From positions 37,588 through 101,587 of IMG/VR virus record IMGVR_UViG_3300032245_001170: 64,000 nucleotides of DNA; one strand, given 5' to 3'. Position numbers and translations under genes: made by a program. The stretch comes from a virus. The stretch's first letter is position 1; each line of letters starts with the position of its first letter. The notes below the pieces were generated by a model that did no database searches, had not been told where the DNA came from, and worked only from the letters and a program-made list of their open reading frames with translations. This document shows positions 6,665 through 57,942 of this stretch, in pieces.

Positions 6665-6957
6665 GGTTTGCAGTGAAGAACTGGCAAGTGTCACAATTGT
6701 TTTTATCTGACACTGGCGTGCACGAAGTTGATATCGAAACTAGCTCTTTAAAGTTACGTTGCAACTGCCCTGGGTTTAAAAATAGAAGTTCCTGTAAGCA
6801 CGTTCGTTTTGTTCGTGAACGCATGTCTGAAAACGACGGAGTCTACCCAACACAAATCTCTACGAAAGCCCCAGTGCTTGAGGCCAACCTCGCTGTCGGC
6901 TCTCCAGAAGCTTTTAGAAAACTATTAATTAATTACGGCAAGATCGAAGTAATTTAG
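6661..6957 (+). CDS. SWIM zinc-finger protein
   Basis: CNCPGFKNRSSCKH (CxCx(n)CxH). Confidence 0.75.
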   Translation: MRFAVKNWQVSQLFLSDTGVHEVDIETSSLKLRCNCPGFKNRSSCKHVRFVRERMSENDGVYPTQISTKAPVLEANLAVGSPEAFRKLLINYGKIEVI

Positions 6958-7361
6958 TGAAGGGCGGGGACATCTCAAATGAGGTCCCTCTTCGAGTAGT
7001 AGTAACACTGGATTGCGTTCTTGATAGAAAACCAACTGTTAAGAAAGTTTTAGGTGTCCCTGTATTCGGAGAAGAGTCTCAGTATAACCGGCAGTCTCTT
7101 TCTCTATTTTGGCGTTTTGCAGAAAAGTACGGGTATGCACTAGAGCTAGTAGGGTTTGGTTATACAAAAAAAGAAATGGAAGAAGTCTTTGAAGATTTAA
7201 ACAATCTCGGGACTAACCCATTCAACTATGTACAAAGGTATGAGTCAGTAGCAGATTTGGTTGGAGAACTTCCCTATCGTCCAGAACTCAAAGGAGTTGT
7301 GGATATCCCCTCTAGGGGGCTAAGGTATGGCAGTAAATATTTAGACATGGGGAGGTTGTAA
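6957..7361 (+). CDS. Degenerate HAD-fold-like protein
   Basis: VVVTLDCVL resembles HAD motif I without the first Asp. Confidence 0.35.
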   Translation: MKGGDISNEVPLRVVVTLDCVLDRKPTVKKVLGVPVFGEESQYNRQSLSLFWRFAEKYGYALELVGFGYTKKEMEEVFEDLNNLGTNPFNYVQRYESVADLVGELPYRPELKGVVDIPSRGLRYGSKYLDMGRL

Positions 7362-8602
7362 TGGCAGCAGATAACGAAGTGCGACTCCTGTCCCGTGCAA
7401 TACGTACCAGAGACATTTCAGTTCTACTTGAAGCCGGAGTACAAGACGACTGGTTTTTTGTTGAAGAGAATAAAGCTGTTTGGAAGTTTATTCGTCAACA
7501 CTGGACCAGGTATCAAGAAGTGCCTACCGGAGTTACTGTATTAGATAACTTCCCTATGTATCGTTTACTTGCAGTAGACGACAACATTGATTATTTATTA
7601 GATCAGTTAATTGAATACCGCAAACGTCAAAGCACTATCTCAGTAGTTCAAGATGCATCAGAGGCAATTGCTTCGGGTGATCACAACACTGCTATTGCAG
7701 TACTTGGACAAGGCGTAGCAAAGTTACTTGATGAAGGTTCTCGGGAGAGCACTGACATTGATTTAACTAACAATGCCACTAAACGATTTGAAGAGTATCT
7801 AAATGTTAAGACTCGTCCAAATGGTTTACTAGGAATCGCTACCGGTTTTAAAACTATTGATCAAGCAACTGCGGGTTTACAGCCAGGTCAGTTAATTACA
7901 ATTATCGCTCCACCTAAGACAGGTAAGTCAGTACTTGCTTTGCAGGTAGCGGTTAATGTTCACAAAGATGGTTTCGTTCCTTTGTTCCAGTCTTTCGAGA
8001 TGAACAACATTGAGCAACAACATCGACACGATGCAATGCGTTCCCATATTGCTCACTCTCGGTTGATTCGCGGGGGCCTGACTAAAGAAGAAGAAGCTCG
8101 ATATCAAAAGGTTCTTGAAGAGATGGAGAGCATGCACAAGTTCTACTTAACAGATGCAGTATCTGCAATGACTGTTACAGGACTTGCTGCAAAGATCGAC
8201 AAGCTTCGTCCAGACATCGTATTTGTAGATGGTGTGTATTTGATGGTTGATGAGATTACTGGGGAGCAGAACAGCCCTCAGGCGTTAACTAATATAACTC
8301 GTGGCCTAAAGCAACTTGCTATGGCTAAGAAAATTCCTATTGTTATTTCTACTCAGGTTCTATTGTGGAAGATGAAGAAGCGCCAGGTATCAGCAGATGC
8401 AATTGGTTACTCATCATCTTTCTATCAAGACTCTGATGTAATTCTTGGATTGCAAAAGCAAGATGAAGAAGACGATACTTCCCGTGAACTACGTATCGTA
8501 GCAAGTCGTAATTGTGGGCCAGCATCAAGTGACCTGTTATGGGACTGGGAAGAAGGGAAGTTTGAAGAGTATGGATCTCTATTCGGAATCAGCACCATTT
8601 GA
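7361..8602 (+). CDS. dnaB: Replicative DNA helicase (DnaB-like)
   Basis: TGF..ID..T.GLQPGQL, PPKTGKS, SFEM, IVFVDG, QDSD motifs. Confidence 0.92.
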   Translation: MAADNEVRLLSRAIRTRDISVLLEAGVQDDWFFVEENKAVWKFIRQHWTRYQEVPTGVTVLDNFPMYRLLAVDDNIDYLLDQLIEYRKRQSTISVVQDASEAIASGDHNTAIAVLGQGVAKLLDEGSRESTDIDLTNNATKRFEEYLNVKTRPNGLLGIATGFKTIDQATAGLQPGQLITIIAPPKTGKSVLALQVAVNVHKDGFVPLFQSFEMNNIEQQHRHDAMRSHIAHSRLIRGGLTKEEEARYQKVLEEMESMHKFYLTDAVSAMTVTGLAAKIDKLRPDIVFVDGVYLMVDEITGEQNSPQALTNITRGLKQLAMAKKIPIVISTQVLLWKMKKRQVSADAIGYSSSFYQDSDVILGLQKQDEEDDTSRELRIVASRNCGPASSDLLWDWEEGKFEEYGSLFGISTI

Positions 8603-12631: not shown

Positions 12632-12632
12632 C

Positions 12633-12662
12633 TTGCACTTTGTCGGTGGGGTGGTATAGGAT
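12633..12662 (+). promoter_or_regulatory. Putative sigma70/SigA-type promoter
   Basis: TTGCAC-18 nt-TAGGAT upstream of RBS AAAGGAGG and ATG 12681. Confidence 0.5.
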
Positions 12663-12680
12663 GTTTCTAAAGGAGGCAAC

Positions 12681-13115
12681 ATGCCAAATATCATCCCACC
12701 GGACAAAAAGCCGGTAAGTTCAGTACTAAGTAAGGTTCAACAATTTATTGCTATTAAGCGTCAATTAGACGACTTAACTAAAGAGCAGACACAGCTTAAA
12801 AATTATCTTTCTGATCTAGTAGATAAAGAGGGTGAGCCTGACGATAAGGGTCATCTCTGGTATCCACTAGAAGAAGAAGTAGATGGCTATCGTTCATTAC
12901 AGCGTCAACGTAAAGTCTCTCAAAGCCTTGATGCAGATGCTGCTACTCGTATCCTTGCTGAACGAGGATTAGCAGATCGCTGTTACTCTATGCAACCAGT
13001 ATTAAATGAGGACGAGGTTATGGCCTGTCTTTATGAAGGAAAGTTGTCAGAAGAGGATATCGATACGATGTTCCCTAAGAAAATTATTTGGGCCTTTATT
13101 CCTTCTAAATCTTAA
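12681..13115 (+). CDS. Hypothetical coiled-coil protein
   Basis: Strong RBS; 144 aa. Confidence 0.65.
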   Translation: MPNIIPPDKKPVSSVLSKVQQFIAIKRQLDDLTKEQTQLKNYLSDLVDKEGEPDDKGHLWYPLEEEVDGYRSLQRQRKVSQSLDADAATRILAERGLADRCYSMQPVLNEDEVMACLYEGKLSEEDIDTMFPKKIIWAFIPSKS

Positions 13116-39529: not shown

Positions 39530-39987
39530 CAGCCTGTCTCCTTTACTTTAGTTGTGCGTAGTATGCCGATTGTTTGTGTTGGCCATAGATATGGCAGGTC
39601 ATCTTCTACCTCAAAGAGGTAATGAGTTGGATCTTTACGTTTGAGATTAGACTGATGACTTTTATGGAACTCTTCGTTACCAATCCACCACGGTTCTGTA
39701 AAAGATTCGGGAGGTAGGTCTCTCATTAGTTCTTTAACTTGATCGTGCACATTATCTTTGTATCCTAAGGCAACCCATCTGGCACACATCATTAATGTAT
39801 ACACGGCTAAGCTACCTTCGTGACCACGCCACATAACTGCAGCGGGGTGATTCCTCCAACCTTTAGTTAGACCCAGGTTGGCTCTCAGTATTTGGAGTGC
39901 TTCCACTCTCTGTTTGCCCAGACGTTTCACGTCCAGAGTCCTCGCTACTGCTTGATACGTTGGTAGCGGAAGGAATGTGTTTACCAT
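39529..39987 (-). CDS. Pyrimidine-dimer DNA glycosylase (MSMEG_6728-like)
   Basis: TFLP, LD.KRLGKQRVE.LQI, W.NHPA..MWRG, H.SHQSNL..KDP.HY. Confidence 0.85.
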   Translation of the reverse strand: MVNTFLPLPTYQAVARTLDVKRLGKQRVEALQILRANLGLTKGWRNHPAAVMWRGHEGSLAVYTLMMCARWVALGYKDNVHDQVKELMRDLPPESFTEPWWIGNEEFHKSHQSNLKRKDPTHYLFEVEDDLPYLWPTQTIGILRTTKVKETG

Positions 39988-40976: not shown

Positions 40977-42902
40977 CTAACGCATTCTCGAACGCTTTTT
41001 GATGGCACTTACTACGACCTGTTTAGCGAATGGAAGCAGGTCTTTAGCATCAGAGATTCTGGCAAATACTTCTGCTTTGTGGCGCAACTGTTCTTCATTG
41101 AGTTGGTTGTGCTCCTCTACATAGTATTTCCACTCTCTATCGTCCATGATTAGAGTCATGGCTGTCAAGATACCTCTGCGATTGATGCGTTCAATTAGAT
41201 CATCGTTTTTGTTTGTGTTGAACACACCATCAGTTACGATAAACAACATCTTATTCTTCTTACGAGAAGCCATAAGTAATTGTTCAGCAGCAAGCAGGGT
41301 TGGATACGGTTCTGTACCGCCACTGCCATAGATAAACTTGTACTCAGTCTTGTGTGCAAGTTCGTTACGGGTATACGCAATCTCGGCAGCATCATCAAAT
41401 GCATAGACTGTGACGGGAGCGTTGATATGTTCTAGTGCACGTTTGATAGTCCAGCAAGCAACAGATGCTTTCTGGTCATTGCGTCCACTAGACATGGAGC
41501 CAGAACGATCGACAAGGATAACTGCTTCAATATCACAGCCATCATCACCTTCATCCCAGCGGTCAAAGGCAGCATCAATCTCGCAACCTCTAATTACACG
41601 TTGCACATTGAGTCGACCAGTTGGTGTCTCTCTTTGCCACGTAGGTTCTGAGTCATCACGAAGTCTTTGTAATTCCCTAGCGAACTTACGATAGGAGATT
41701 ATTGCTTCTTGAGGAACTGCAGTGTTATGGAACTTGCCTCGTTTAGTTATGTCCTCATGCTTGCCATCTCCACCAACAATTACTCGTTGTTTGGTTCTGA
41801 CATCTGCTTGGACATCCTTGCGAGCCAATACATCATCGATTGCATTATTGAGCATGTCATTGATGCTATCGGGTAGTCCACCAAGACTAGGAGCATGTCC
41901 TTCACCGGCTGTTGCAGGAGTTTGGGTATCTACGTTTTGTTCACGTATACCCAAAGCTTGCTCAACAGAGGTTGGTGCGCTTCGTTGTGTCGGTGTCCCA
42001 TTACTTGTATTATCTGGCTTATTACTTCCGTCAGAGGATTCGGTTTGTGTTGGAGACGAGTTAGATGGTTGCGGTTGCTGTTTAGGTTTAGGTACGTAAG
42101 TAGATTCTTTTGTACCCATTCCTTTAGCACGTTCAGCATCTTTCTCCTGAGCCTTGCCTGGTTCGGGACGACCTTTAGATGTTGGTGAGCGTTCACCACA
42201 TTTGTTAGGGCCACCGTCCATGTTAGGAAGCATTCCCATAGGGATGCATACCTCGTTGTAGAATCGTTCTACTAGTTCTTTTGCTTTCTCGTATCCTTGT
42301 GGGAACGGAAGCAAACGATACTGATCAACGATGTCAATGATTGCTGGGATTAGCTCAGGGAAGGCAAACTCATCACGGAATGCTTGTCTAATCTCAACAG
42401 GTAGATAACGACGACCACGAATGCAGACATAGTTACCACTGATATCTTCTGATGCACCCAACCAACGAGCCACTGTGGCTGTTAGATATGGTGCAATAGA
42501 TGGATACCTACCTACTAGTAATGTTTCGATACGTTGATCCTCCAAGATATTAAACGCTTGGAAGTAATTGTTATCGATAATCCACTTGACTAGTTCTGTG
42601 CCTTTGCGAGGCGTATACAGGTGGTGGGCCAACTCGTGATAGTTGAGGCCGTTTACCTGTGTCAATGTTTCCAAGTCCATATCTTGAATCTCATTGAGAT
42701 TGATATAGATTGATGCACCATCAGACCACGCAGGTGCGGGGCCATCAGGAACAACATTGACTATGACTGGGTCGCCAGTTAGAACACGGTCCGCCTGTTC
42801 GTACACGCGGCATAATGCATTCAACCGAACTGAACGCTCTTGCGTTTCCTCGGTTCTGGCTTCTCCGTAATAACTATTGTCATTGAGTTCTTCAATTAAC
42901 AT
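40977..42902 (-). CDS. VWA-domain protein (CobT-like; N-terminal HExxH)
   Basis: HELAH, NILED.RIE, MIDAS DRSGS..GGT..TDG. Confidence 0.88.
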   Translation of the reverse strand: MLIEELNDNSYYGEARTEETQERSVRLNALCRVYEQADRVLTGDPVIVNVVPDGPAPAWSDGASIYINLNEIQDMDLETLTQVNGLNYHELAHHLYTPRKGTELVKWIIDNNYFQAFNILEDQRIETLLVGRYPSIAPYLTATVARWLGASEDISGNYVCIRGRRYLPVEIRQAFRDEFAFPELIPAIIDIVDQYRLLPFPQGYEKAKELVERFYNEVCIPMGMLPNMDGGPNKCGERSPTSKGRPEPGKAQEKDAERAKGMGTKESTYVPKPKQQPQPSNSSPTQTESSDGSNKPDNTSNGTPTQRSAPTSVEQALGIREQNVDTQTPATAGEGHAPSLGGLPDSINDMLNNAIDDVLARKDVQADVRTKQRVIVGGDGKHEDITKRGKFHNTAVPQEAIISYRKFARELQRLRDDSEPTWQRETPTGRLNVQRVIRGCEIDAAFDRWDEGDDGCDIEAVILVDRSGSMSSGRNDQKASVACWTIKRALEHINAPVTVYAFDDAAEIAYTRNELAHKTEYKFIYGSGGTEPYPTLLAAEQLLMASRKKNKMLFIVTDGVFNTNKNDDLIERINRRGILTAMTLIMDDREWKYYVEEHNQLNEEQLRHKAEVFARISDAKDLLPFAKQVVVSAIKKRSRMR

Positions 42903-42904
42903 AG

Positions 42905-44332
42905 TTATGCCAATTTAGATGCGTATTGACCAGCCCACGCTTTGAGTTGTTCTTCAGGAGATAGTCCTTCAGGCTCTTGCTCAACAACAATTGGGATTTC
43001 AATACCGAAATCAGTCTTGATGTTGTGTTCGTGTGTCTGGAATACCAATCTAACGCTTGCTGCTTCGTCAGGGCTGAAGTGAGCAATGAAGTTTTCCACT
43101 GCGAACTCATAGCCTAGAGCGTCAACAAAGTTAACGAACTCTTGAAGCATGTTAGTTGAGATTGGTGTTTCGTATTGACCTTTGTTAGCTTCAATACGTA
43201 GTTGTTTAGCAACGACCAACAATGCCTTAGATGAAACCAACTTAGCCTCGACCTTGTCATCATAATCCCAAGGGATTTGGATATCAAAGCGATTACGGAA
43301 GGCAAAGTTGAGCGGTGTTGTACCAATGTAATCTGGATTCATAGTAGCGAAGATAGTGAGGTCTTTGTGAGCCTCAATAGTTTCACCATGATGATCCAGC
43401 AATGTAATGGCACGACGACCGTCTAATAGTCCGTAAAGAACTGTGTAGATCTTAGGGCTGATGAAGTTAACCTCGTCGAGCAATAAGACACCACCATTAC
43501 GAACTACATCAGTGACAGGGCCATCAATCCAAGCAAATGAACCATTACCATCTGATACGAACTTACCAGTCATTTGACTAGGCTCCATAGAAGCATTGCC
43601 TGAGACTGTAGCCATACGTAAACCGCGTTCAGCAGCCCACGCTTCTACAGATGTGGTTTTACCTGGACCTGTTGGGCCATAGATTAGAACGTTGATGTTT
43701 TTGCTACGAGCATGATCAAAGATTTCAAAGTCCTCACGGGACCAGATATCTCTATGCACATAGCGTTTTGCTAGTTCAATCCGTGGCACTGATGCCAATG
43801 ATGCTTTAATCATTGGACCGCTAGATTCTGCAACTCTAATTGGAGTTGGTTCAATCGTTGCGGGTGCGGGCATTGTTTGTGTTGGCGCTGACACTAACGG
43901 AACAGGAGTTCCCGGCATACGGCGGTTGTCAATTACATGAGACTCAAGAGAATCATCACCAATACTTACCGCTTCGTAGATTTCGCATAAGCGTTCTACA
44001 AAGGACATAGTATCTGTGCTGATTGCTGCTTTAGTATGCGCTTGACATGCCTTGGTGCCGAGGACTGGGGAATAACCTTTGTCCGTCATAGCACGTTCAT
44101 CTGCTGATGTAACATATACAGCAACAGGTGTGCGTGTGAGCTTTTCGTCAGTACCTATCTGTCCTGTAATACTATCTAGGTCAGTTTCCTCCCACTTATT
44201 GTGAGGACCCTTTGTCCCATCAGTATCACGTGAATAGATTCGTACGTTACCATCATGTGGAGTGATAAGAACCTGGCGGCGCTTAGCCCCCATGGTTGGT
44301 TCGTACGACTCAGTGAATACAGCGATATCCAT
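42905..44332 (-). CDS. MoxR-family AAA+ ATPase (CobS/CbbQ-like)
   Basis: GPTGPGKT, W.DGP, LLDEVN, ATMNP.Y.GT..LN.AF.NRF. Confidence 0.9.
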   Translation of the reverse strand: MDIAVFTESYEPTMGAKRRQVLITPHDGNVRIYSRDTDGTKGPHNKWEETDLDSITGQIGTDEKLTRTPVAVYVTSADERAMTDKGYSPVLGTKACQAHTKAAISTDTMSFVERLCEIYEAVSIGDDSLESHVIDNRRMPGTPVPLVSAPTQTMPAPATIEPTPIRVAESSGPMIKASLASVPRIELAKRYVHRDIWSREDFEIFDHARSKNINVLIYGPTGPGKTTSVEAWAAERGLRMATVSGNASMEPSQMTGKFVSDGNGSFAWIDGPVTDVVRNGGVLLLDEVNFISPKIYTVLYGLLDGRRAITLLDHHGETIEAHKDLTIFATMNPDYIGTTPLNFAFRNRFDIQIPWDYDDKVEAKLVSSKALLVVAKQLRIEANKGQYETPISTNMLQEFVNFVDALGYEFAVENFIAHFSPDEAASVRLVFQTHEHNIKTDFGIEIPIVVEQEPEGLSPEEQLKAWAGQYASKLA

Positions 44333-44407: not shown

Positions 44408-44650
44408 TTAGTCTTCGTCGTCCTCTAGGACACGGTTTTCAATGACAGCGGCCATTTCGTAGGCAACTTGCTTGTCACGAGGCCATTTAGTAATCAGGTC
44501 AAATAAGATGCCGTGATTCTCTGCCTTCTCCATAATTAAATTCATTTGCTTACTAATGTAATCGTAAAACTCTTGCTTTTCAACAGGCGATAAGGAATCA
44601 AAACTAGGGGTGTATTCGTCTTCACTATCATCTTCATCAAAGTTAAACAT
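44408..44650 (-). CDS. Acidic hypothetical protein
   Basis: RBS AGAAGGGA. Confidence 0.65.
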   Translation of the reverse strand: MFNFDEDDSEDEYTPSFDSLSPVEKQEFYDYISKQMNLIMEKAENHGILFDLITKWPRDKQVAYEMAAVIENRVLEDDED

Positions 44651-44678
44651 TTTATTTCCCTTCTGTTAGGTTTAGGTT

Positions 44679-44990
44679 CCCAGAGCAGGTCTTTAAGACC
44701 TGCCCTGGGGTATCTACAAGGTGTACGCACGAAGGACAAGAGAGGCTGGAAACTTAGCTACTACGGGCTTGCATCAAGTGAGTTTAGGTACCGCGGAAGT
44801 GGTTGGTTGGACTAACTGTGTCACGCTCAACCATCTTCCTAACGGCCCACTGTTATTGCTTTCCGACTTGGGTTGGATCAAGTATCTTGCCGAGTGCTTC
44901 TAGTCTTGTAAACGTTGACACACCTCAAGGAGGGGACGCTGGATTGCCAGATTGTGGTCGCAGGCCCGGTCAAGAGGATATGCCAAATTT
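44679..44990 (-). ncRNA. Putative structured intergenic RNA A
   Basis: Nested helices 44919-25/44719-25, 44904-09/44736-41, 44828-39/44795-805, plus a 14-bp hairpin at 44679-709. Confidence 0.5.
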
Positions 44991-45006
44991 GTTTGTGTTG
45001 AAACGA

Positions 45007-45468
45007 TTACGCTTCTGCTAACCATGAACTCTCTGCTTGTGGCAGTTGGCTAATTAGAAGTGTTTGATAGAAAGGTCCAGGCATTTGTTTGGTCATGGCT
45101 TGTGCTACTGACCAGATAAATGAAGATGCTTCCTCAGGCTTGTTACGTGCGATTGCTTCTACTACAACGTTGGGATGGCCCCAAGAGTATGCAACAGCAG
45201 TCACATACTCAGTCATTGTTCGTATAGATACTTCATCTGCTGCACCACGTAAACCAGTGCATAGCGCTTTGAGTGCTGTGTCTTGGTCAACTGCATCTCG
45301 CAATATGTAACCAATAGTTACATCTCTGAAGTGAGTGTTGGTGCTTAGATCTTTTAAGTTAGCTGGAATGTAACCTTGCAAGATTTGAGTAGACGCTTGT
45401 AAAGGCGTTGTTACTAAACCCTGAGTGGGAACAGACTCTCCAGTGTAATTAACTGTCAAGTTTGACAT
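45007..45468 (-). CDS. Helical hypothetical protein (possible DUF4192-like paralog)
   Basis: 'FRDV.IG' resembles 'VRDF.LG' of 39863-40459. Confidence 0.55.
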   Translation of the reverse strand: MSNLTVNYTGESVPTQGLVTTPLQASTQILQGYIPANLKDLSTNTHFRDVTIGYILRDAVDQDTALKALCTGLRGAADEVSIRTMTEYVTAVAYSWGHPNVVVEAIARNKPEEASSFIWSVAQAMTKQMPGPFYQTLLISQLPQAESSWLAEA

Positions 45469-46156
45469 ATGCTGCGATCCTTCTCTCTAGTTCGGTTGGT
45501 GGTTGCTTTACTATGTTGCCATCTTTTAACCTGAGTGGAGAACCATCCCAAGTAATAGATATAAGCTTGTTCCCATAGTCTTGTTTGCCTGTGCCACTAC
45601 AGCTACGACAATCTCTTCCTTTAGGAACATTGTGACTATCTGCAAATCCATGTGAGCATTTACCATAGTGCCAGTAAGAAGACCGACCTTGGGTCGGTGT
45701 CCATTCTGGATGGTCTGCACATGGAAAGTGATTACTGCAATATGGCGGGGAACACCAATCGTCTCTCTTACCAGAACCTTTACAACCTCTACACTTTTGC
45801 ACCTTTGATGGGGTGCGTAAAGCATCTTGAGTTGTTATGTAAACGGTTCCTTCTTTTTGGAATACGCCCTGTAATTTACCAAAGTGTTTGATGTTGTATC
45901 TAACACCTTGAGAGCGTAATGGATTCCATGTGCCACCCCACCGTGTTGCTGTTGATTGAGGGCATTGGATTGTTAATGTGCCATCAGGATGAAATAGAAC
46001 AGGGTTGAATCCATACCATTTATCTACGATGGCAATGTCTTTGCCATGATTTTGTAGGCGAAGCCCACGCATATACATTGGTCGGTCCCATTTCTTACGA
46101 CCGCCTGCTAGATATACTTTGGCTTCATCATAATTTGATATCCACCACGCACCCAT
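45449..46156 (-). CDS. Protein with DnaJ-type CxxCxGxG motifs
   Basis: CRGCKGSG, CRSCSGTG. Confidence 0.65.
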   Translation of the reverse strand: MGAWWISNYDEAKVYLAGGRKKWDRPMYMRGLRLQNHGKDIAIVDKWYGFNPVLFHPDGTLTIQCPQSTATRWGGTWNPLRSQGVRYNIKHFGKLQGVFQKEGTVYITTQDALRTPSKVQKCRGCKGSGKRDDWCSPPYCSNHFPCADHPEWTPTQGRSSYWHYGKCSHGFADSHNVPKGRDCRSCSGTGKQDYGNKLISITWDGSPLRLKDGNIVKQPPTELERRIAAYVKLDS

Positions 46157-46446
46157 TAGTTAGCTTCTACGCTTTCAAATAATGTGCGATTAGATACATC
46201 AAATGTAGTTTCTCTGTGTTGCTCTGTTACTCTGTCTTCATCGTAATCTTCATCGAACCATACGATACTAATTGGATTACGTCTTGCTGCTTCTGGTGAC
46301 ACTGCAAAGAGTGCCATACCTAGACCATCTATCATGCCGGTATGGTATGCCCTGCTGTGCTGTGAATCAAGATCATGAAGGTTGATTTCTTCATCAATCA
46401 TCATGCGCTCAATTTGTTTAGTCAACTTGCGCTTGTTAAGCCACAT
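46156..46446 (-). CDS. Hypothetical protein
   Basis: RBS AGAAGGGAG. Confidence 0.65.
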   Translation of the reverse strand: MWLNKRKLTKQIERMMIDEEINLHDLDSQHSRAYHTGMIDGLGMALFAVSPEAARRNPISIVWFDEDYDEDRVTEQHRETTFDVSNRTLFESVEAN

Positions 46447-46482
46447 GTCGGCTCCCTTCTGTATGTTGGGCGGTTTGTTTGT

Positions 46483-46810
46483 GTTGGAGCAGAGGCACCA
46501 CCTCCCACGGTAATCCTGACTCTAGCCTCGGCACACGTGGGTTTCCCCGAGGTGTGCTGTCATAAGCAAACGCATTTAGTGTTTAGTGTTTTGAATGGCT
46601 GTATCGTCGGGAGTAGTTTCCCCATGGGATACCCAACGAGCCAGAGCACTTACTGTAGTACTGTGCATGACCAATCATTATGCCTCTGCCCAACGTGCCT
46701 GCATAGACGGCGAAATCTATACAGGCTCCATCACATTTGTATACCGCATGATGGTGCGGTCTTACGAAGGGCTAAGACTTCATAGCGTTGCAGTATGCCC
46801 TAGCCGTGCA
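46483..46810 (-). ncRNA. Putative structured intergenic RNA B
   Basis: Closing stem 46681-94/46483-97; internal GAAA-capped hairpins; further hairpins at 46697-778. Confidence 0.55.
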
Positions 46811-46813
46811 AGA

Positions 46814-47002
46814 TTAATCTTTGAAGAAAGATTTTGAATATAACTCATCCATCTGTGTACGCTTGTAACCTTCTTCTTTACGCTCATAAATACGATAAGA
46901 CTGGGCTTCAAAGTATCTGTTGCGCCATGCGTATGCATAGACTGTGATTCCTATTGAATAAAACAATAGGAACAGGAATAGCCATGATTGTTCAGGCGTC
47001 AT
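46814..47002 (-). CDS. Small membrane protein
   Basis: One TM segment. Confidence 0.55.
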   Translation of the reverse strand: MTPEQSWLFLFLLFYSIGITVYAYAWRNRYFEAQSYRIYERKEEGYKRTQMDELYSKSFFKD

Positions 47003-47249
47003 TGGAAACACTTACTGCTTCCTTTCTTACTTTGCCTGTCTTCCAGTGTGGGATAGTTGGGTGGTCAACACGACCTCCTGCTGCTTTCCATGCTTCACGC
47101 TTTTCATGGTTGCTTGCACTGCGACCGTTAATACGACCTGGTCTAGACTCAAACTTGGATTTAATTCCATCTGGTCCAGGATTCTTTTTCCATGCTTTGC
47201 CATTAGGGCGGTTATCATTTCTTGAACCGCCTGATTTTTTCCCTGCCAT
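46992..47249 (-). CDS. Basic small protein
   Basis: RBS GAAAGGAG before ATG 47249. Confidence 0.6.
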   Translation of the reverse strand: MAGKKSGGSRNDNRPNGKAWKKNPGPDGIKSKFESRPGRINGRSASNHEKREAWKAAGGRVDHPTIPHWKTGKVRKEAVSVSNDA

Positions 47250-47395
47250 TGAAGGCTCCTTTCGGGGGTGTGTGGGTTTGTGTCGGTTACGGACATTGGC
47301 ATGTCCCTTGTGCACACTCATAGTTCATGAGTGCTTCTGACTCTGTGTAGCCATTGAGTATCTCAATAGCAATGAACAGATCTTTCTTTAGTTCT

Positions 47396-47743
47396 TCAAG
47401 CGTTGGGGAAGTTGTCTTTGATGTAAGCAAGTTGTTTGCTGTATTGCTCGTCAAACCATTCTTTTGTCCAGCCATTGCAGTATTCCTCTCCTGTATTCGG
47501 ATGCCAGTTAAACACTGTGGTCTCAGGTATACCCATGAACTTGGTGAACTCGTGGGCACACTTGTGGCACAACGTGAATGTGAGAGGGTTTTCTTCACCC
47601 TCGTAATAGATGTTGTCTACGAACTGCATGTATCCGCCATCTAAAGATATGTCTAAAGAGACAGGTATATCAGAGTCCATTTGCATGGGCTTGAATACTT
47701 GTGGGTCTTGACATCGTGCACATTCGACTATGGTTATAGTCAT
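47396..47743 (-). CDS. Cys-motif hypothetical protein
   Basis: CARC..LCHKCAH; RBS AGAAGGGA. Confidence 0.65.
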   Translation of the reverse strand: MTITIVECARCQDPQVFKPMQMDSDIPVSLDISLDGGYMQFVDNIYYEGEENPLTFTLCHKCAHEFTKFMGIPETTVFNWHPNTGEEYCNGWTKEWFDEQYSKQLAYIKDNFPNA

Positions 47744-47757
47744 TGCTTTCCCTTCTG

Positions 47758-48123
47758 TTATTGACGAGTGAAGCCGATATTAAGTTGTGTAAACAACAAG
47801 CATAGTTTGATGCCGGCTGTTCTTAATGGAAACAGGCTGTGATTGTTTTCATCACCACGAGTGTTCCAAACCCTGCTGTTGAATGGGGGAGTCAGTTCTA
47901 CATCTAACTTGAATAGGCTATCTGTAAAACCAAATGCAATTTCAAAACCATAGGTTGTTTTACTTTTAGTTGTAAAGTTAAACACTCTACCTCTTCCAAC
48001 ATATGGGTCAAATAGAGGGTGCGAAGAGAAACCTGTTTCTAAATCTTTGCGACCCAATAGTTCAACTTCATCAAAGAAACTATCCACGCTGGGATAGTCA
48101 ATGATTGTTCTGCCTGTGTTCAT
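47758..48123 (-). CDS. Hypothetical protein
   Basis: RBS AAGGAG. Confidence 0.6.
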   Translation of the reverse strand: MNTGRTIIDYPSVDSFFDEVELLGRKDLETGFSSHPLFDPYVGRGRVFNFTTKSKTTYGFEIAFGFTDSLFKLDVELTPPFNSRVWNTRGDENNHSLFPLRTAGIKLCLLFTQLNIGFTRQ

Positions 48124-48266
48124 CTGTTCTCCTTATAGTAGTTGGTGAGCCTTTTAGCATTCACATGCTCAGGTGAGGCGCAGATATACCCCGATGCTCG
48201 GGACATGTTTTACCTCAGGTCATGTCTGACCAACCACGCATAGCGTGTATCCCCTTCTCGGAGGAA

Positions 48267-48356
48267 TTATTTACGACGCCATGCTTTGATGGCTACAATG
48301 AATACCAATGAGATACAGATGATCACAATGGTTTGTGGTTCAAATTCAATATACAT
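48267..48356 (-). CDS. 29-aa single-TM peptide
   Basis: MYIEFEPQTIVIICISLVFIVAIKAWRRK. Confidence 0.5.
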   Translation of the reverse strand: MYIEFEPQTIVIICISLVFIVAIKAWRRK

Positions 48357-49028
48357 TTACATACCCTCCACATCTCGTAGAGCCTTCTGTAAAGCGTCTT
48401 GCTGTTCTTTGAGTGAAGCAATCTTTGCTTCTTTTATCTTCTCCTTAGCCGTTGCTAAGAATGAGGCGAGTTCAGTGCACTCAGACAGTTCTAGTCTGAT
48501 TGAACGACCAGCCTTGCTCACATCTACACTCATAGAGTGCTCGTTGACTTCGTATGACAATGGGTCGTCACACCAACCTGATGTTCTGGACATGGTTCCC
48601 TTTCTTGTTCTTGTTGTATTTAGGTAGTTGAATTTGTCAATCCAACAGGCAAAACTAGGGTCATAAGGCTCACCTGATTTAGATGTAAACCTAAAGGTGG
48701 CAAGCGTTTTGACTTTATAGTAGATGCCTGTTGCTTCGTCAAGGACATAGTCTGGCCAATACCAAGAGTGTTGTCGCCTGTCGAAGTTTTCATCGAACAA
48801 TGCTTCTTGCTTGCTGACTTCCCTGATGAAATAGAATTGATCGGGGTCGCTTCGCTTGCCACAATACATGTCGTATAGAATCCAAGAGCTATCTTTGTAA
48901 GTAACCTTGTCGGGATACTCCAAGATGTGATCACGATAGGCAATCCATTGCTTATCAGCACTCACCTTATGATTTTTATACCACCGCCTGTAAGATTGTT
49001 CAAGAGTCATAATGTCCTCAGTGGACAT
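48357..49028 (-). CDS. Hypothetical protein
   Basis: RBS AGAAGGGAG; 223 aa. Confidence 0.65.
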   Translation of the reverse strand: MSTEDIMTLEQSYRRWYKNHKVSADKQWIAYRDHILEYPDKVTYKDSSWILYDMYCGKRSDPDQFYFIREVSKQEALFDENFDRRQHSWYWPDYVLDEATGIYYKVKTLATFRFTSKSGEPYDPSFACWIDKFNYLNTTRTRKGTMSRTSGWCDDPLSYEVNEHSMSVDVSKAGRSIRLELSECTELASFLATAKEKIKEAKIASLKEQQDALQKALRDVEGM

Positions 49029-49147
49029 GTCTACTCCCTTCTAAAACAAGGCGGGAGAACAAGGAAGAAGTCGTCATACCCAAATTTGGCTCAGACTAAG
49101 TCTTGTTCTCCCACCTTATCCCCCTTCTCTGGGGTATCTACCTCGCC

Positions 49148-49431
49148 TTGAGATAGATAGAGAGCACACTGAATTACTGAAGGAATTGCGTGAGACTCAC
49201 AACCACAGCCCCTCTTGCGTTGCAGAACTACATACACAGCCTCTGTCGCGTCTATGACTATGCCTCTGCTCTTACTTAGGCAGGTAACTATCTCCCTGCG
49301 GGTGCCTCGGCACCTAAGTCCGTACTGTTTCGCTTCTTCACGCCCCCTCTATGATAATAGTTACACTCACATAGAATCCTCGTTCTCGGTGCAATCAACA
49401 GCCTATTCAGTGTGCCCTCTGTCCATCTCAA
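49148..49431 (-). ncRNA. Putative structured intergenic RNA C
   Basis: 27-nt terminal inverted repeat 49148-74/49405-31; internal three-way junction. Confidence 0.65.
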
Positions 49432-49455
49432 ACTTCGCGGGGAAGGATTGGTGTA

Positions 49456-49596
49456 TTACTTACAATTAGTGCAATAGTTAGTTGCCCTAATGTTCTTAAT
49501 GTGGACGCGGTAAGGCTGTCCACAGTGATGACATACAACATCAGTCATCTCTTTCTTTTTGCGGGTAATGCCTATCTTGATAGATAGTGTGAACAT
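49456..49596 (-). CDS. 46-aa Zn-ribbon peptide
   Basis: RBS GAAAGGA; CHHC..CTNC. Confidence 0.55.
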   Translation of the reverse strand: MFTLSIKIGITRKKKEMTDVVCHHCGQPYRVHIKNIRATNYCTNCK

Positions 49597-49626
49597 AACG
49601 ATCCTTTCATACTGATTGTTGGAAAT

Positions 49627-49884
49627 TTACTGTCTACCTGATGACCTACCATCTAATAGATGGGGGGAGTCTGCTTCCACGTAGGTAAAGCCTTGCTTAG
49701 GAACTAGGATAAGACGATACTGCTCTTGTCTGCTCCGTAGTTCATGGGCACAGATAGGATTGAAGCAATAGTGATAGCCTGCTTCCCATCTGGCTTGTAA
49801 CACAGGCTGTCCGCAATAGATACAAGACAGAGCATTATCTAATGCTTCTAGACAAGGCTCTGAATCACAACATTGACACTTCAT
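49627..49884 (-). CDS. Cys-rich small protein
   Basis: RBS AGAAAGG before MKCQCC; CIYC, C...C. Confidence 0.55.
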   Translation of the reverse strand: MKCQCCDSEPCLEALDNALSCIYCGQPVLQARWEAGYHYCFNPICAHELRSRQEQYRLILVPKQGFTYVEADSPHLLDGRSSGRQ

Positions 49885-50376
49885 AACTAGCCTTTCTAAT
49901 AGAAACACGGGATTATCTTTACGCAAGCACATTGCAACCCGTGTCTATCCTTGTGTAAATACTCTCAGATAGAGAGTGAGAGATACATAGGCTCAGGACT
50001 GTAATAGTCTCTGCGTTTAAGTCGTAAACACCTATGTATCTTCCACAACCTACCTGATAACAGCCATACACCATAGTCGTAGACCTGGTGTGTCTCCCAA
50101 TGCTCATAGTTAGATAATTAGCAGTAGCCAATTCTCTATGATGAGAGATGTATCACATTGTGAGATGAGAAAGCCCTAGCCGAACTTTGAAGGGGACGGC
50201 TAGGGCTTCTCGATAGACAGAAGACACGACAGCAGCAGACTAGACTCGGGGGAGAAAGCAGGTTCCCTATGGCTACGAACCAATAGGGCTTTATCCACTC
50301 CCCATCTACGCCCATAGATACTATGGACATAGAAAGGAAGTGGGCGGGGGTTTCCCCCCACCCACTAACTATCTAA

Positions 50377-50901
50377 CTAAGCAGATACTTTCTCTGATAC
50401 TAACTGGAACGACAAGAGTCGTTGTGCGGAAGCAATGAGGTCTTCCAACTCTTGACGAGCCTTTGGTGTCTTTACCATAGACACCTTCTGTAAGGACTTG
50501 ATGGCTGTGGCAATGTTTGCCTCAGCATCTAGACCGAACTTGGCTTTCTCTGCTTGGTCAAACAAGACCTTTGCGGCAATCTCTTTCTCAAGAGTGTTTA
50601 TCTGGGCAAAGAAGTCCTCAGACTCGTAGTCCAAGATGGACTCGATGACTTCATACTTCTTAGTGATGACATCACGCATAGCGTAGACAGTTTCTGGGGA
50701 AGTGCCGTAGCGGTATGAGATGTAACCCCCGAATAATACGAGAGCCTTAGCAGAGTCTAACTTCTCACCACTCGTGATGAAGTTAGATGGGACAAGCGTC
50801 TTATCTGCGCTGAAGTGCTTACTCGCTTGCTTGATGGACTCAACAGAGCCACCCTTGCCACGAGTCGCAAGGAGCGCGGATAGGTTTTCGCGTGCTGACA
50901 T
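50377..50901 (-). CDS. First gene of the early arm, unknown function
   Basis: 174 aa; RBS AGAAAG; followed by a GC hairpin. Confidence 0.7.
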   Translation of the reverse strand: MSARENLSALLATRGKGGSVESIKQASKHFSADKTLVPSNFITSGEKLDSAKALVLFGGYISYRYGTSPETVYAMRDVITKKYEVIESILDYESEDFFAQINTLEKEIAAKVLFDQAEKAKFGLDAEANIATAIKSLQKVSMVKTPKARQELEDLIASAQRLLSFQLVSEKVSA

Positions 50902-57399: not shown

Positions 57400-57942
57400 T
57401 CAATTTTTAGGGAAATCATCAAACCATTTGGTTATACCCGGCTCTGATGGGTCTCCGTCATAGGCCCCAGAGCCGTACCCCCAAGAACTAAAATCCGTCC
57501 CTCTACCAGTCATGTAATACGCCGCTTGGGCGTTAGTAACTGGGTCAAGCAGTTCCGCATCTTTTTTAATACCGAACTTCTCTCTACGGATGGCTCCTAG
57601 ATCTCCTATCATGTTGATCTGGAATAACCCGTAAGAGTTGTCTCCTGTAGCTGAAGTCTTGTTATGGGAAGTTGGGTGACCCCGGGACTCCTTCATAACT
57701 ACTGACCAAGCTACCTTTAGGCTGTTGCCTTCAAAACCAACCAGGGCCAAGAGGTCTTTCAACTCCTTGGAGGTCAGTTCTGTTGCCCCACGGTATTTGT
57801 CGAGTGGATCTACGACCTCTACTATTGTTTGTGTTGGGGTGTCTTTCTTGTTTTCTTCGGCTGCCATTGCTACGGGGATACCGCAGACTAATACTAAATA
57901 GGCCACCATAACTGCGATTTGCGATTTTGCATCTTTATGCAC
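57400..57942 (-). CDS. Secreted lysozyme-like/SLT transglycosylase
   Basis: Signal-like N-terminus; KES, YGLFQIN, L.DP..NA.AA, SSW. Confidence 0.82.
   Translation of the reverse strand: MHKDAKSQIAVMVAYLVLVCGIPVAMAAEENKKDTPTQTIVEVVDPLDKYRGATELTSKELKDLLALVGFEGNSLKVAWSVVMKESRGHPTSHNKTSATGDNSYGLFQINMIGDLGAIRREKFGIKKDAELLDPVTNAQAAYYMTGRGTDFSSWGYGSGAYDGDPSEPGITKWFDDFPKN

Follow-up and report, generated by a model that had tools for sequence, protein, structure and literature searches.

The window analysed here is a stretch of 64,000 nucleotides, comprising bases 37588-101587 of a 101.6 kb virus record of IMG/VR (IMGVR_UViG_3300032245_001170). It encodes a family A DNA polymerase, an SNF2 helicase, a class II ribonucleotide reductase, a terminase and an SPP1-type portal protein, as well as a CobS-like AAA protein and a VWA protein. 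Minus-strand genes fill the region from 38.9 to 50.9 kb, pointing away from a divergent region near 51 kb, and this arm may be expressed early. It is interrupted by five intergenic gaps, all on the minus strand, located at 44651-45006 (gap 1), 46447-46813 (gap 2), 48124-48270 (gap 3), 49029-49455 (gap 4) and 50132-50376 (gap 5). An earlier prediction, made from the letters of the window (the original prediction), had assumed structured RNAs in all five gaps. Conserved RNA structure was found in gaps 1 to 4, two of which include a pseudoknot or a kissing loop, whereas gap 5 consists mainly of terminator hairpins and a near-palindromic repeat.

Coding potential, folding and known RNA families

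All five gaps were found where they had been predicted, poor in open reading frames (ORFs), non-coding and present in a single copy. The narrower extent originally given for gap 3 was also correct, positions 48271-48355 being occupied by a conserved 29-aa ORF. Insertions and deletions within the elements were mostly not multiples of three, variable columns showed no 3-periodicity when sorted by codon phase (86/82/88, 66/62/62, 49/61/49 and 63/63/63), and the longest open stretches across related phages measured between 29 and 125 codons, without preservation of a frame. The gaps are therefore unlikely to be coding. The invariant sequence GGGUAUCCCAUGGGGA of gap 2 falls in one frame in the window and in another in L004/L033, a single relative that was retrieved twice. 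Conserved small ORFs, which could have explained the gaps, were in no case kept across relatives.

In agreement with the original prediction, which had recognised no tRNA, transfer-messenger RNA (tmRNA) or other known RNA, ARAGORN detected neither a tRNA nor a tmRNA gene in the whole window, and a scan of the whole window with Rfam 15 gave no match at the gathering score. When the region was scanned with Rfam 15 at E<5, three chance-level matches were obtained (16-23 bits, compared with thresholds of 35-80). Riboswitches, ribozymes, 6S RNA, tmRNA, RNase P RNA, group I and II introns and other Rfam families were not encountered, and the same scan of seven relatives yielded tRNAs only.

Folding of single minus-strand sequences gave z-scores of -4.1, -3.5, -1.95, -6.4 and -7.8 for gaps 1 to 5, compared with -0.7 to -4.8 for six coding segments of the same arm. 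The base pairing described as dense in the original prediction thus exceeded the coding controls in gaps 4 and 5, but not in gaps 1 to 3 as judged from one sequence. A similar division applied to its second claim, namely that G-U wobbles mark the minus strand as the transcribed one. The minimum free energy of the minus strand was lower than that of the plus strand by 27 kcal/mol for gap 4 and by 16 kcal/mol for gap 5, while the minus-strand folds of gaps 1 and 2 were not better than those of the plus strand, and the outcome for gaps 1 to 3 was ambiguous.

The three sequence segments reported to be shared between elements were all present. Common k-mers of 9-12 nt were more frequent among the gaps than in 300 of 300 dinucleotide shuffles, part of the excess being due to the ribosome-binding site (RBS; ACAGAAGGGA) and to a genome-wide motif, CCAACACAAACAA. 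Profile hidden Markov models (HMMs) of each element matched only their own site in the genome, indicating that the elements are not detectable paralogues; a repeat family common to the elements was not found in the genome with these profiles.

Homologues in related phages

Two flanking proteins used as queries yielded three close relatives, and the CobS-like protein yielded 46 related IMG/VR loci from phages of about 100 kb (55-94% protein identity). Homologues of the elements were located in these loci by iterated nhmmer searches. Gap 3 was the most widespread element (33 loci), followed by gap 5 (28 loci), gap 4 (18 loci), gap 2 (16 loci) and gap 1 (13 loci). The structural alignments comprised 11-27 sequences, all from this one phage family. 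In the three close relatives, the gaps were at least as conserved as the flanking genes; for example, positions 50161-50400 were 93-97% identical and the adjoining gene 65-70%. The gaps of these relatives differed by insertions or deletions of 1, 2, 21 and 25 nt and by visible compensatory changes. In the larger alignments, too, compensatory changes exceeded those of register-shifted or shuffled controls for gaps 1, 2 and 4, and the gap-3 pseudoknot co-varied, so that the covariation proposed as a check of the original prediction was indeed observed.

The phage family probably infects freshwater Actinobacteria. An actinobacterial host appears likely because a close relative carries a WhiB-family gene (L006, 1198-1467; Pfam E 7.6e-14), which lies between the gap-2 element and a 96-aa gene.

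A blastn search of the region against 50,697 phage records gave no match. A loose DNA pattern of gap 3 produced mostly chance matches in viral contigs, L156 being the only true relative among the matches listed, and none of five matches of a stricter pattern in 185,579 species genomes was confirmed by the profile. A pattern match in Ca. Planktophila was rejected as a chance match falling within a gene; a BLAST search of that genome with the gap-4 RNA gave nothing.

The gap-4 RNA appears to be a compact fold with a co-varying kissing loop

The gap-4 RNA comprises about 284 nt (49148-49431, minus strand). It is closed by a stem of 27 bp formed by 49405-49431 and 49148-49174, which encloses a multi-helix core with inner hairpins at 49370-49375/49348-49353 and 49311-49319/49274-49282. 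In an alignment of 14 homologues with a mean column identity of 65%, RNAalifold predicted 52 pairs, 37 of them with compensatory changes. An independent count on this alignment showed that 95.2% of cells were paired and that 38 pairs had changed on both sides, compared with only 3-17 pairs in register-shifted controls; the observed values were reached by none of 500 shuffles. One G-U pair was invariant in all 14 sequences. G-U cells (71) far outnumbered A-C cells (14), which speaks for the transcribed minus strand in the case of gap 4, in line with the wobble argument mentioned above.

A tertiary contact could also be identified. The loop GUAACUAU (49357-49364) is complementary to AUAGUUAC (49284-49291), and this complementarity was kept in 13 of 14 sequences by means of 10 different loop sequences. 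The mean duplex energy was -8.4 kcal/mol for cognate loops, -5.9 kcal/mol for non-cognate loops and -4.3 kcal/mol for shuffled loops. As this contact co-varies, the element appears to be a compact folded RNA and not a mere processing hairpin. The folds also hold conserved unpaired purine tracts. With regard to RNase III, for which about 20 bp or more of near-continuous double-stranded RNA are required, the 27-bp stem is present and co-varying, and cleavage at this site is predicted.

A long hairpin at 49048-49117 (minus strand; arms of 16-19 bp, followed by UUGUUUU) is situated just before the RBS of a 223-aa gene and resembles a terminator or attenuator at the 3′ flank of the gap-4 RNA. Relatives have a different hairpin or none at this place, indicating that it lies outside the conserved RNA.

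The gap-3 RNA contains an H-type pseudoknot

The gap-3 RNA (48143-48237, minus strand) comprises about 95 nt and consists of a hairpin (48227-48231/48218-48222), the invariant tract CCUGAGGUAAAA, a variable hairpin and an H-type pseudoknot; a second invariant tract is GGCUAAAC. In the pseudoknot, UCAC (48173-48176) pairs with GUGA (48161-48164) and UGAGCA (48166-48171) pairs with 48146-48151, the two helices being paired in 100% and 97.9%, respectively. Both helices showed coordinated exchanges. UCAC/GUGA alternated with UGUC/GACA in 12 and 12 sequences, involving swaps of CG with GC and of AU with UA, and UGAGCA/UGCUCA was replaced by UAAGCA/UGCUUA and by GAGUG/CACUC, involving swaps of GC with AU. 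These exchanges were spread over the subgroups of the alignment. The pseudoknot is followed on its 3′ side by an unstructured CA-rich tract and then by a Shine-Dalgarno (SD) sequence.

A 121-aa gene (47758-48123) located 3′ of the element is absent in L004/L033, where the element stands directly before the next gene, indicating that a gene cassette was gained or lost at the border of the element.

The gap-2 RNA consists of two modules

Gap 2 (46453-46812) was resolved into a 5′ module of about 115 nt and a 3′ module of about 210 nt. The 5′ module (46697-46812, minus strand) contains a hairpin at 46755-46760/46743-46748, whose loop CCAUCA can pair with a downstream UGAUGG to form a possible pseudoknot, and a minihelix of 11-12 bp (46715-46726/46697-46708). 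An acceptor stem and a T-arm are found at the position of this minihelix in the distant relatives L048, L049 and L054, and the tRNA-like piece of L049 and L054 carries the canonical loop GGUUCRAUUCC. This piece comprises only the acceptor stem and T-arm; it was not called by ARAGORN and gave only sub-threshold matches of tRNA type (tRNA-Sec, 17 bits, E 0.96).

The 3′ domain (46483-46694, minus strand) is closed by a helix between GUUGGGCAGAGGC (46682-46694) and GCCUCUGcUCCAAC (46483-46496, GCCUCUGYCCAAC), which is backed by three different compensatory changes, and includes a conserved hairpin with an AUG triloop (46619-46629). In 14 sequences, including those of the most distant loci, where the domain could still be recognised, 31 consensus pairs were obtained, which were 96.5% paired; 19 pairs were compensatory, compared with 3-4 when the alignment was slid. 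The antisense strand gave similar alifold energies.

The gap-1 RNA occupies a fixed position

The RNA domain of gap 1 (44715-44910, minus strand) is a multi-helix junction of about 200 nt closed by 44903-44910/44715-44722. The alignment of 11 sequences gave 49 pairs, which were 93.9% paired, and 30 compensatory pairs as opposed to 5-10 when slid. A hairpin of 14 bp (44678-44710, minus strand) lies between this domain and the RBS of an 80-aa gene and shows compensatory changes of AG/CU to GA/UC relative to L004. A fixed position and a hairpin at the RBS, as would be expected of a riboswitch or leader, were observed for gap 1; gaps 3 and 4 have varying neighbours and lack a conserved downstream hairpin. 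As the position of gap 1 upstream of one operon is fixed, this element could be a cis-acting leader, and a cis-regulatory role remains a live option for it. A cobalamin riboswitch preceding the CobS/CobT-like genes was considered and rejected, as there was no Rfam match and no B12 box could be seen by eye.

The sequence GUAGAUACCCCAG occurs 3′ of both the gap-1 and the gap-4 domains (in the regions of 44714-44717 and 49138-49141), and relatives as well as the end of gap 5 contain similar (A/G)UAGAUA tracts. It may represent a common signal, either a promoter or one for processing or binding.

Gap 5 resembles a transcription-control block

The following order of features was observed in gap 5, all on the minus strand. 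A terminator-type hairpin (50339-50366; 12 bp, nine of them G-C), located after the first gene of the arm (174 aa), passed the terminator scan; in relatives its structure was kept while its sequence differed. It is followed by a conserved 12-bp hairpin (50306-50332) consisting of two tandem near-palindromic 12-mers (CUAUGNNCAUAG). The gap-5 profile also matched the opposite strand, and the 12-mers could be an RNA hairpin or equally a pair of DNA operators. After a variable stretch, a second hairpin rich in G+C (50171-50208) is terminator-like and followed by UUUCU and by a conserved tail with the tract CAUCUCACAAUGUGAUAC...CAUCAUAGAGAA. The U tracts at 50171-50208 and at the hairpin 49048-49117 of gap 4 are weaker than that at 50339-50366. 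Gap 5 is read as a transcription-control block and not as a gene for a non-coding RNA (ncRNA).

Gene neighbourhood and tRNA genes

The genes that flank the gap-3 and gap-4 elements, upstream as well as downstream, vary widely between phages. In L037 the elements follow each other in the order gap 3, motif, gap 4, with no ORF in between, and in L015 gap 4 precedes gap 3. The next start codon is found at variable distances from these two elements, from overlapping them to being more than 150 nt away, and there is no conservation of the downstream hairpin.

The window is devoid of tRNA genes; in relatives, genes for tRNA-Met(CAT) and tRNA-Arg(CCT) are located in the same arm and on the same strand, adjoining elements of the gap-3 type. 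In L047, L048 and L050, a tRNA-Met gene (approximately 7235-7383) ends 25 nt before the gap-3 element. In L035, a tRNA-Arg(CCU) gene (6708-6781) starts at the base right after the element, and tRNA-Arg genes were likewise found with gap-3-type elements in L038 (6793-6866) and L025 (6379-6452). In these three loci a second copy of the 3′ hairpin of the gap-3 element lies about 75 nt after the tRNA-Arg gene.

Searches of the arm's proteins with Pfam and PHROGs revealed no RNA-binding or RNA-processing domain. A 235-aa protein (45449-46156) without a Pfam or PHROGs match contains two CxxCxGxG motifs (CRGCKGSG and CRSCSGTG), which by reading of the sequence are of the DnaJ zinc-finger type.

Short contigs of 92-100% identity, at a depth below 5, were present in two sequencing runs from wastewater (X19 and X20); the runs are labelled 'METAGENOMIC RNA-Seq', but the material may be DNA. 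These contigs corresponded to 44556-44710 (3′ hairpin of gap 1), 47087-47250 (a conserved gene for a basic 109-aa protein) and 50093-50432 (gap 5). Outside the arm, an ORF-free gap of 374 nt was observed in the replication module (12632-13005, in a plus-strand region). Its z-score on the plus strand was about -4.9, obtained with mononucleotide shuffling only, and the gap may contain either an origin or a further structured RNA.

A flanking motif oriented with transcription

The motif CCAACACAAACAA borders the elements and occurs in 7 copies in the genome, compared with about 0.01 expected. Copies of the form (C/U)CAACACAAACAA are located on the minus strand at 46475-46487, 44989-45001, 43873-43884, 41209-41220, 39570-39581 and 57825-57836 and on the plus strand at genome position 15969. 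The first bases of the copy at 46475-46487 are the 3′ strand of the gap-2 closing helix, and the second in-gap copy, (U)CAACACAAACAA at 44989-45001, directly follows the stop codon of a 153-aa gene. In the 46 loci, CAACACAAAC was found in 250 distinct contexts on the coding strand of the arm as opposed to 39 on the other strand; where inspected, the opposite-strand copies were situated in the flank that is transcribed divergently, immediately ahead of a terminator-type hairpin. Copies also occur within the CobS-like and VWA genes, where their positions are conserved and their reading frames differ, and they are frequently located immediately 5′ of SD sequences. The motif is a nucleotide-level signal oriented with transcription. 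A 5′ GGUUGG in gap 3 could pair with it, as judged by eye only, and the best antisense partner for the motif within the arm was no better than those of shuffles.

Within the CobS-like gene, a motif copy is followed by an in-frame ATG (43871-43873, codon 154) just before the AAA domain. An internal start at this codon is unlikely, as relatives do not have the ATG.

Discussion

On balance, we lean towards the view that gaps 1 to 4 contain independent, vertically conserved ncRNA genes, arranged in a cluster resembling a tRNA island, whose products are freed from the operon transcript by RNases of the host and function in trans. These genes and the tRNA genes found at corresponding places in relatives would make up an RNA-gene cluster within the leftward operon. 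Transcription of the arm would start in the divergent region near 51 kb and pass through the terminator or attenuator block of gap 5, and each module would fold on its own, closed by its terminal helix. The modules would then be cut out by host RNases, with RNase III acting on the 27-bp stem of gap 4 and RNase P or Z acting where tRNAs or tRNA-like minihelices abut, and the products would persist as stable ncRNAs acting in trans on a partner of the host or the phage. The original prediction had likewise supposed that the RNAs are cut from a polycistronic transcript, and the anatomy of the arm, i.e. the abutting tRNAs or tRNA-like elements and the 27-bp stem, is consistent with this part of it. 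Its further suggestion, that the RNAs are decoys for host defence proteins, RNAP or nucleases within an RNA-based takeover system, is speculative. While the features described above were observed, transcription, processing, stability and action in trans of the RNAs of gaps 1 to 4 are inferred.

Several observations weigh against this interpretation. The single-sequence z-scores of gaps 1 to 3 do not surpass those of coding segments, covariation leaves the strand of gaps 1 and 2 undecided, and a scan for promoter-like sites in the gaps was negative. Several elements end a few bases before an RBS, which fits mRNA leaders, and gap 1 is invariably flanked by the 153-aa gene and the 80-aa/CobS-like genes, as would be the case for a cis-acting leader. 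There was no RNA run covering the region. A search for a co-occurring partner protein gave only clusters that were confounded by phylogeny or were spurious ORFs within the elements.

Some of these points suit the main alternative, which is possible though rather doubtful, and according to which the elements act in cis on the operon mRNA as leaders, attenuators, riboswitch-like aptamers, sites for RNase III or E or 5′ and 3′ stabilisers, without any free ncRNA. They would then serve to adjust the stoichiometry and timing of neighbouring genes, in the manner of the RNase III sites of the T7 early genes. Such an action in cis would agree with the two terminator-type hairpins of gap 5 after the first gene, with the terminator-like hairpin and U tract between the gap-4 RNA and the next RBS, with the constant place of gap 1 before the same operon and its hairpin adjoining the RBS, and with the succession of pseudoknot, CA-rich tract and SD sequence in gap 3, which recalls the translational operator of T4 gene 32. 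However, what follows the gap-3 and gap-4 elements differs between phages and may be an unrelated gene, another RNA module or a tRNA, the distance from the start codon extends from overlap to more than 150 nt, no downstream hairpin is conserved, and multi-junction folds of 200-350 nt with unpaired purine tracts and a kissing loop exceed what known processing sites need. Gap 1 and the flanking hairpins are the best candidates for an action in cis.

It is improbable that the conserved function resides in the DNA, as operators, an origin or recombination hot-spot cassettes bordering exchangeable genes, comparable to the promoter-stem-loop cassettes of T4-type phages, with the RNA structure being a by-product of inverted repeats. 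The tandem 12-mers of the gap-5 hairpin, which score on both strands, would fit this explanation, as would the similar antisense alifold energies of gap 2 and the differing gene content beside the elements (the 121-aa gene absent in L004, and WhiB after gap 2 in L006). But helices whose arms are up to about 280 nt apart, a pseudoknot and a kissing loop co-vary, none of which protein-binding repeats would need; gap 4 has an invariant G-U pair and a 71:14 excess of G-U over A-C on one strand, and the elements have no repeat family in common. Least probable of all is that the gaps are decaying remnants of tRNA genes or hidden small or unusual protein genes, with no function of their own. Relatives do have tRNAs at these positions, the gap-2 minihelix aligns with the tRNA-like T-arm and acceptor of distant relatives, and the window allows ORFs of 30-136 codons to be drawn, but the elements are conserved at least as well as neighbouring genes, co-vary pervasively and match no tRNA model, and no ORF keeps its frame or length across relatives or shows codon periodicity.

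A further suggestion can be made tentatively, namely that the phage family carries at least four undescribed classes of RNA with complex folds that are exchanged as modules alongside tRNAs. At least one of them would represent a new functional class, for instance a ribozyme, an RNA that binds a ligand or a protein, or a mimic by which a host machine is redirected, for example a defence nuclease, an enzyme of tRNA processing or the ribosome. Few large RNAs are known that have tertiary structure but no known function, and past ones have turned out to be ribozymes, riboswitches or, in the case of GOLLD and ROOL, RNA-only nanocages. The locus described here offers four such candidate RNAs at once, in an abundant freshwater phage lineage, and their covariation is already strong enough for the design of constructs. 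That they shuffle like genes and share sites with tRNAs points to an 'RNA island' strategy of phages that is wider than tRNAs alone. Moreover, excision from operon transcripts can be approached directly through the long closing stems, the tRNA-like minihelix and the CCAACACAAACAA motif that flanks the elements.

Several known systems resemble the elements in part. The RNase III sites of the T7 early genes are single irregular hairpins of about 60 nt. They, too, are structured intergenic elements of an operon, and the 27-bp stem of gap 4 has sufficient length for a substrate; the present elements differ in having multi-junction folds with tertiary contacts and unpaired tracts that are conserved, and in not being bound to particular gene borders. 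The stable RNAs C and D (species 1 and 2) of T4 are small RNAs without a known function, which are located in a tRNA cluster and released from a common precursor by the tRNA-processing enzymes of the host. They share the context of a tRNA cluster, whereas the window itself has no tRNA genes and its elements are larger and interleaved with ORFs.

A collection of 8495 candidate structured RNA motifs of 29-151 nt (mean 67 nt) has been derived from IMG/VR (PMC10690425), the source of the present data as well, by the same approach of covariation in intergenic regions of phages. Fragments of the present elements may be among these motifs; a cluster of large modules is not described in the text consulted.

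A further parallel is offered by GOLLD and ROOL, which are likewise encoded by phages, have complex, covarying folds and functions that are not known, and are often found near tRNA islands. GOLLD env-38 is located downstream of tRNA-Met (bioRxiv 10.1101/2024.12.08.627333), and a similar arrangement is seen in three relatives, with tRNA-Met 25 nt upstream of the gap-3 element. Profiles of GOLLD and ROOL are distributed by Rfam (bioRxiv 10.1101/2024.12.08.627333), and the Rfam 15 scans, which should include both models, gave no match to either. While GOLLD and ROOL measure 500-800 nt or more, the elements described here measure 95-350 nt, and several unrelated modules stand in one arm, interspersed with protein genes.

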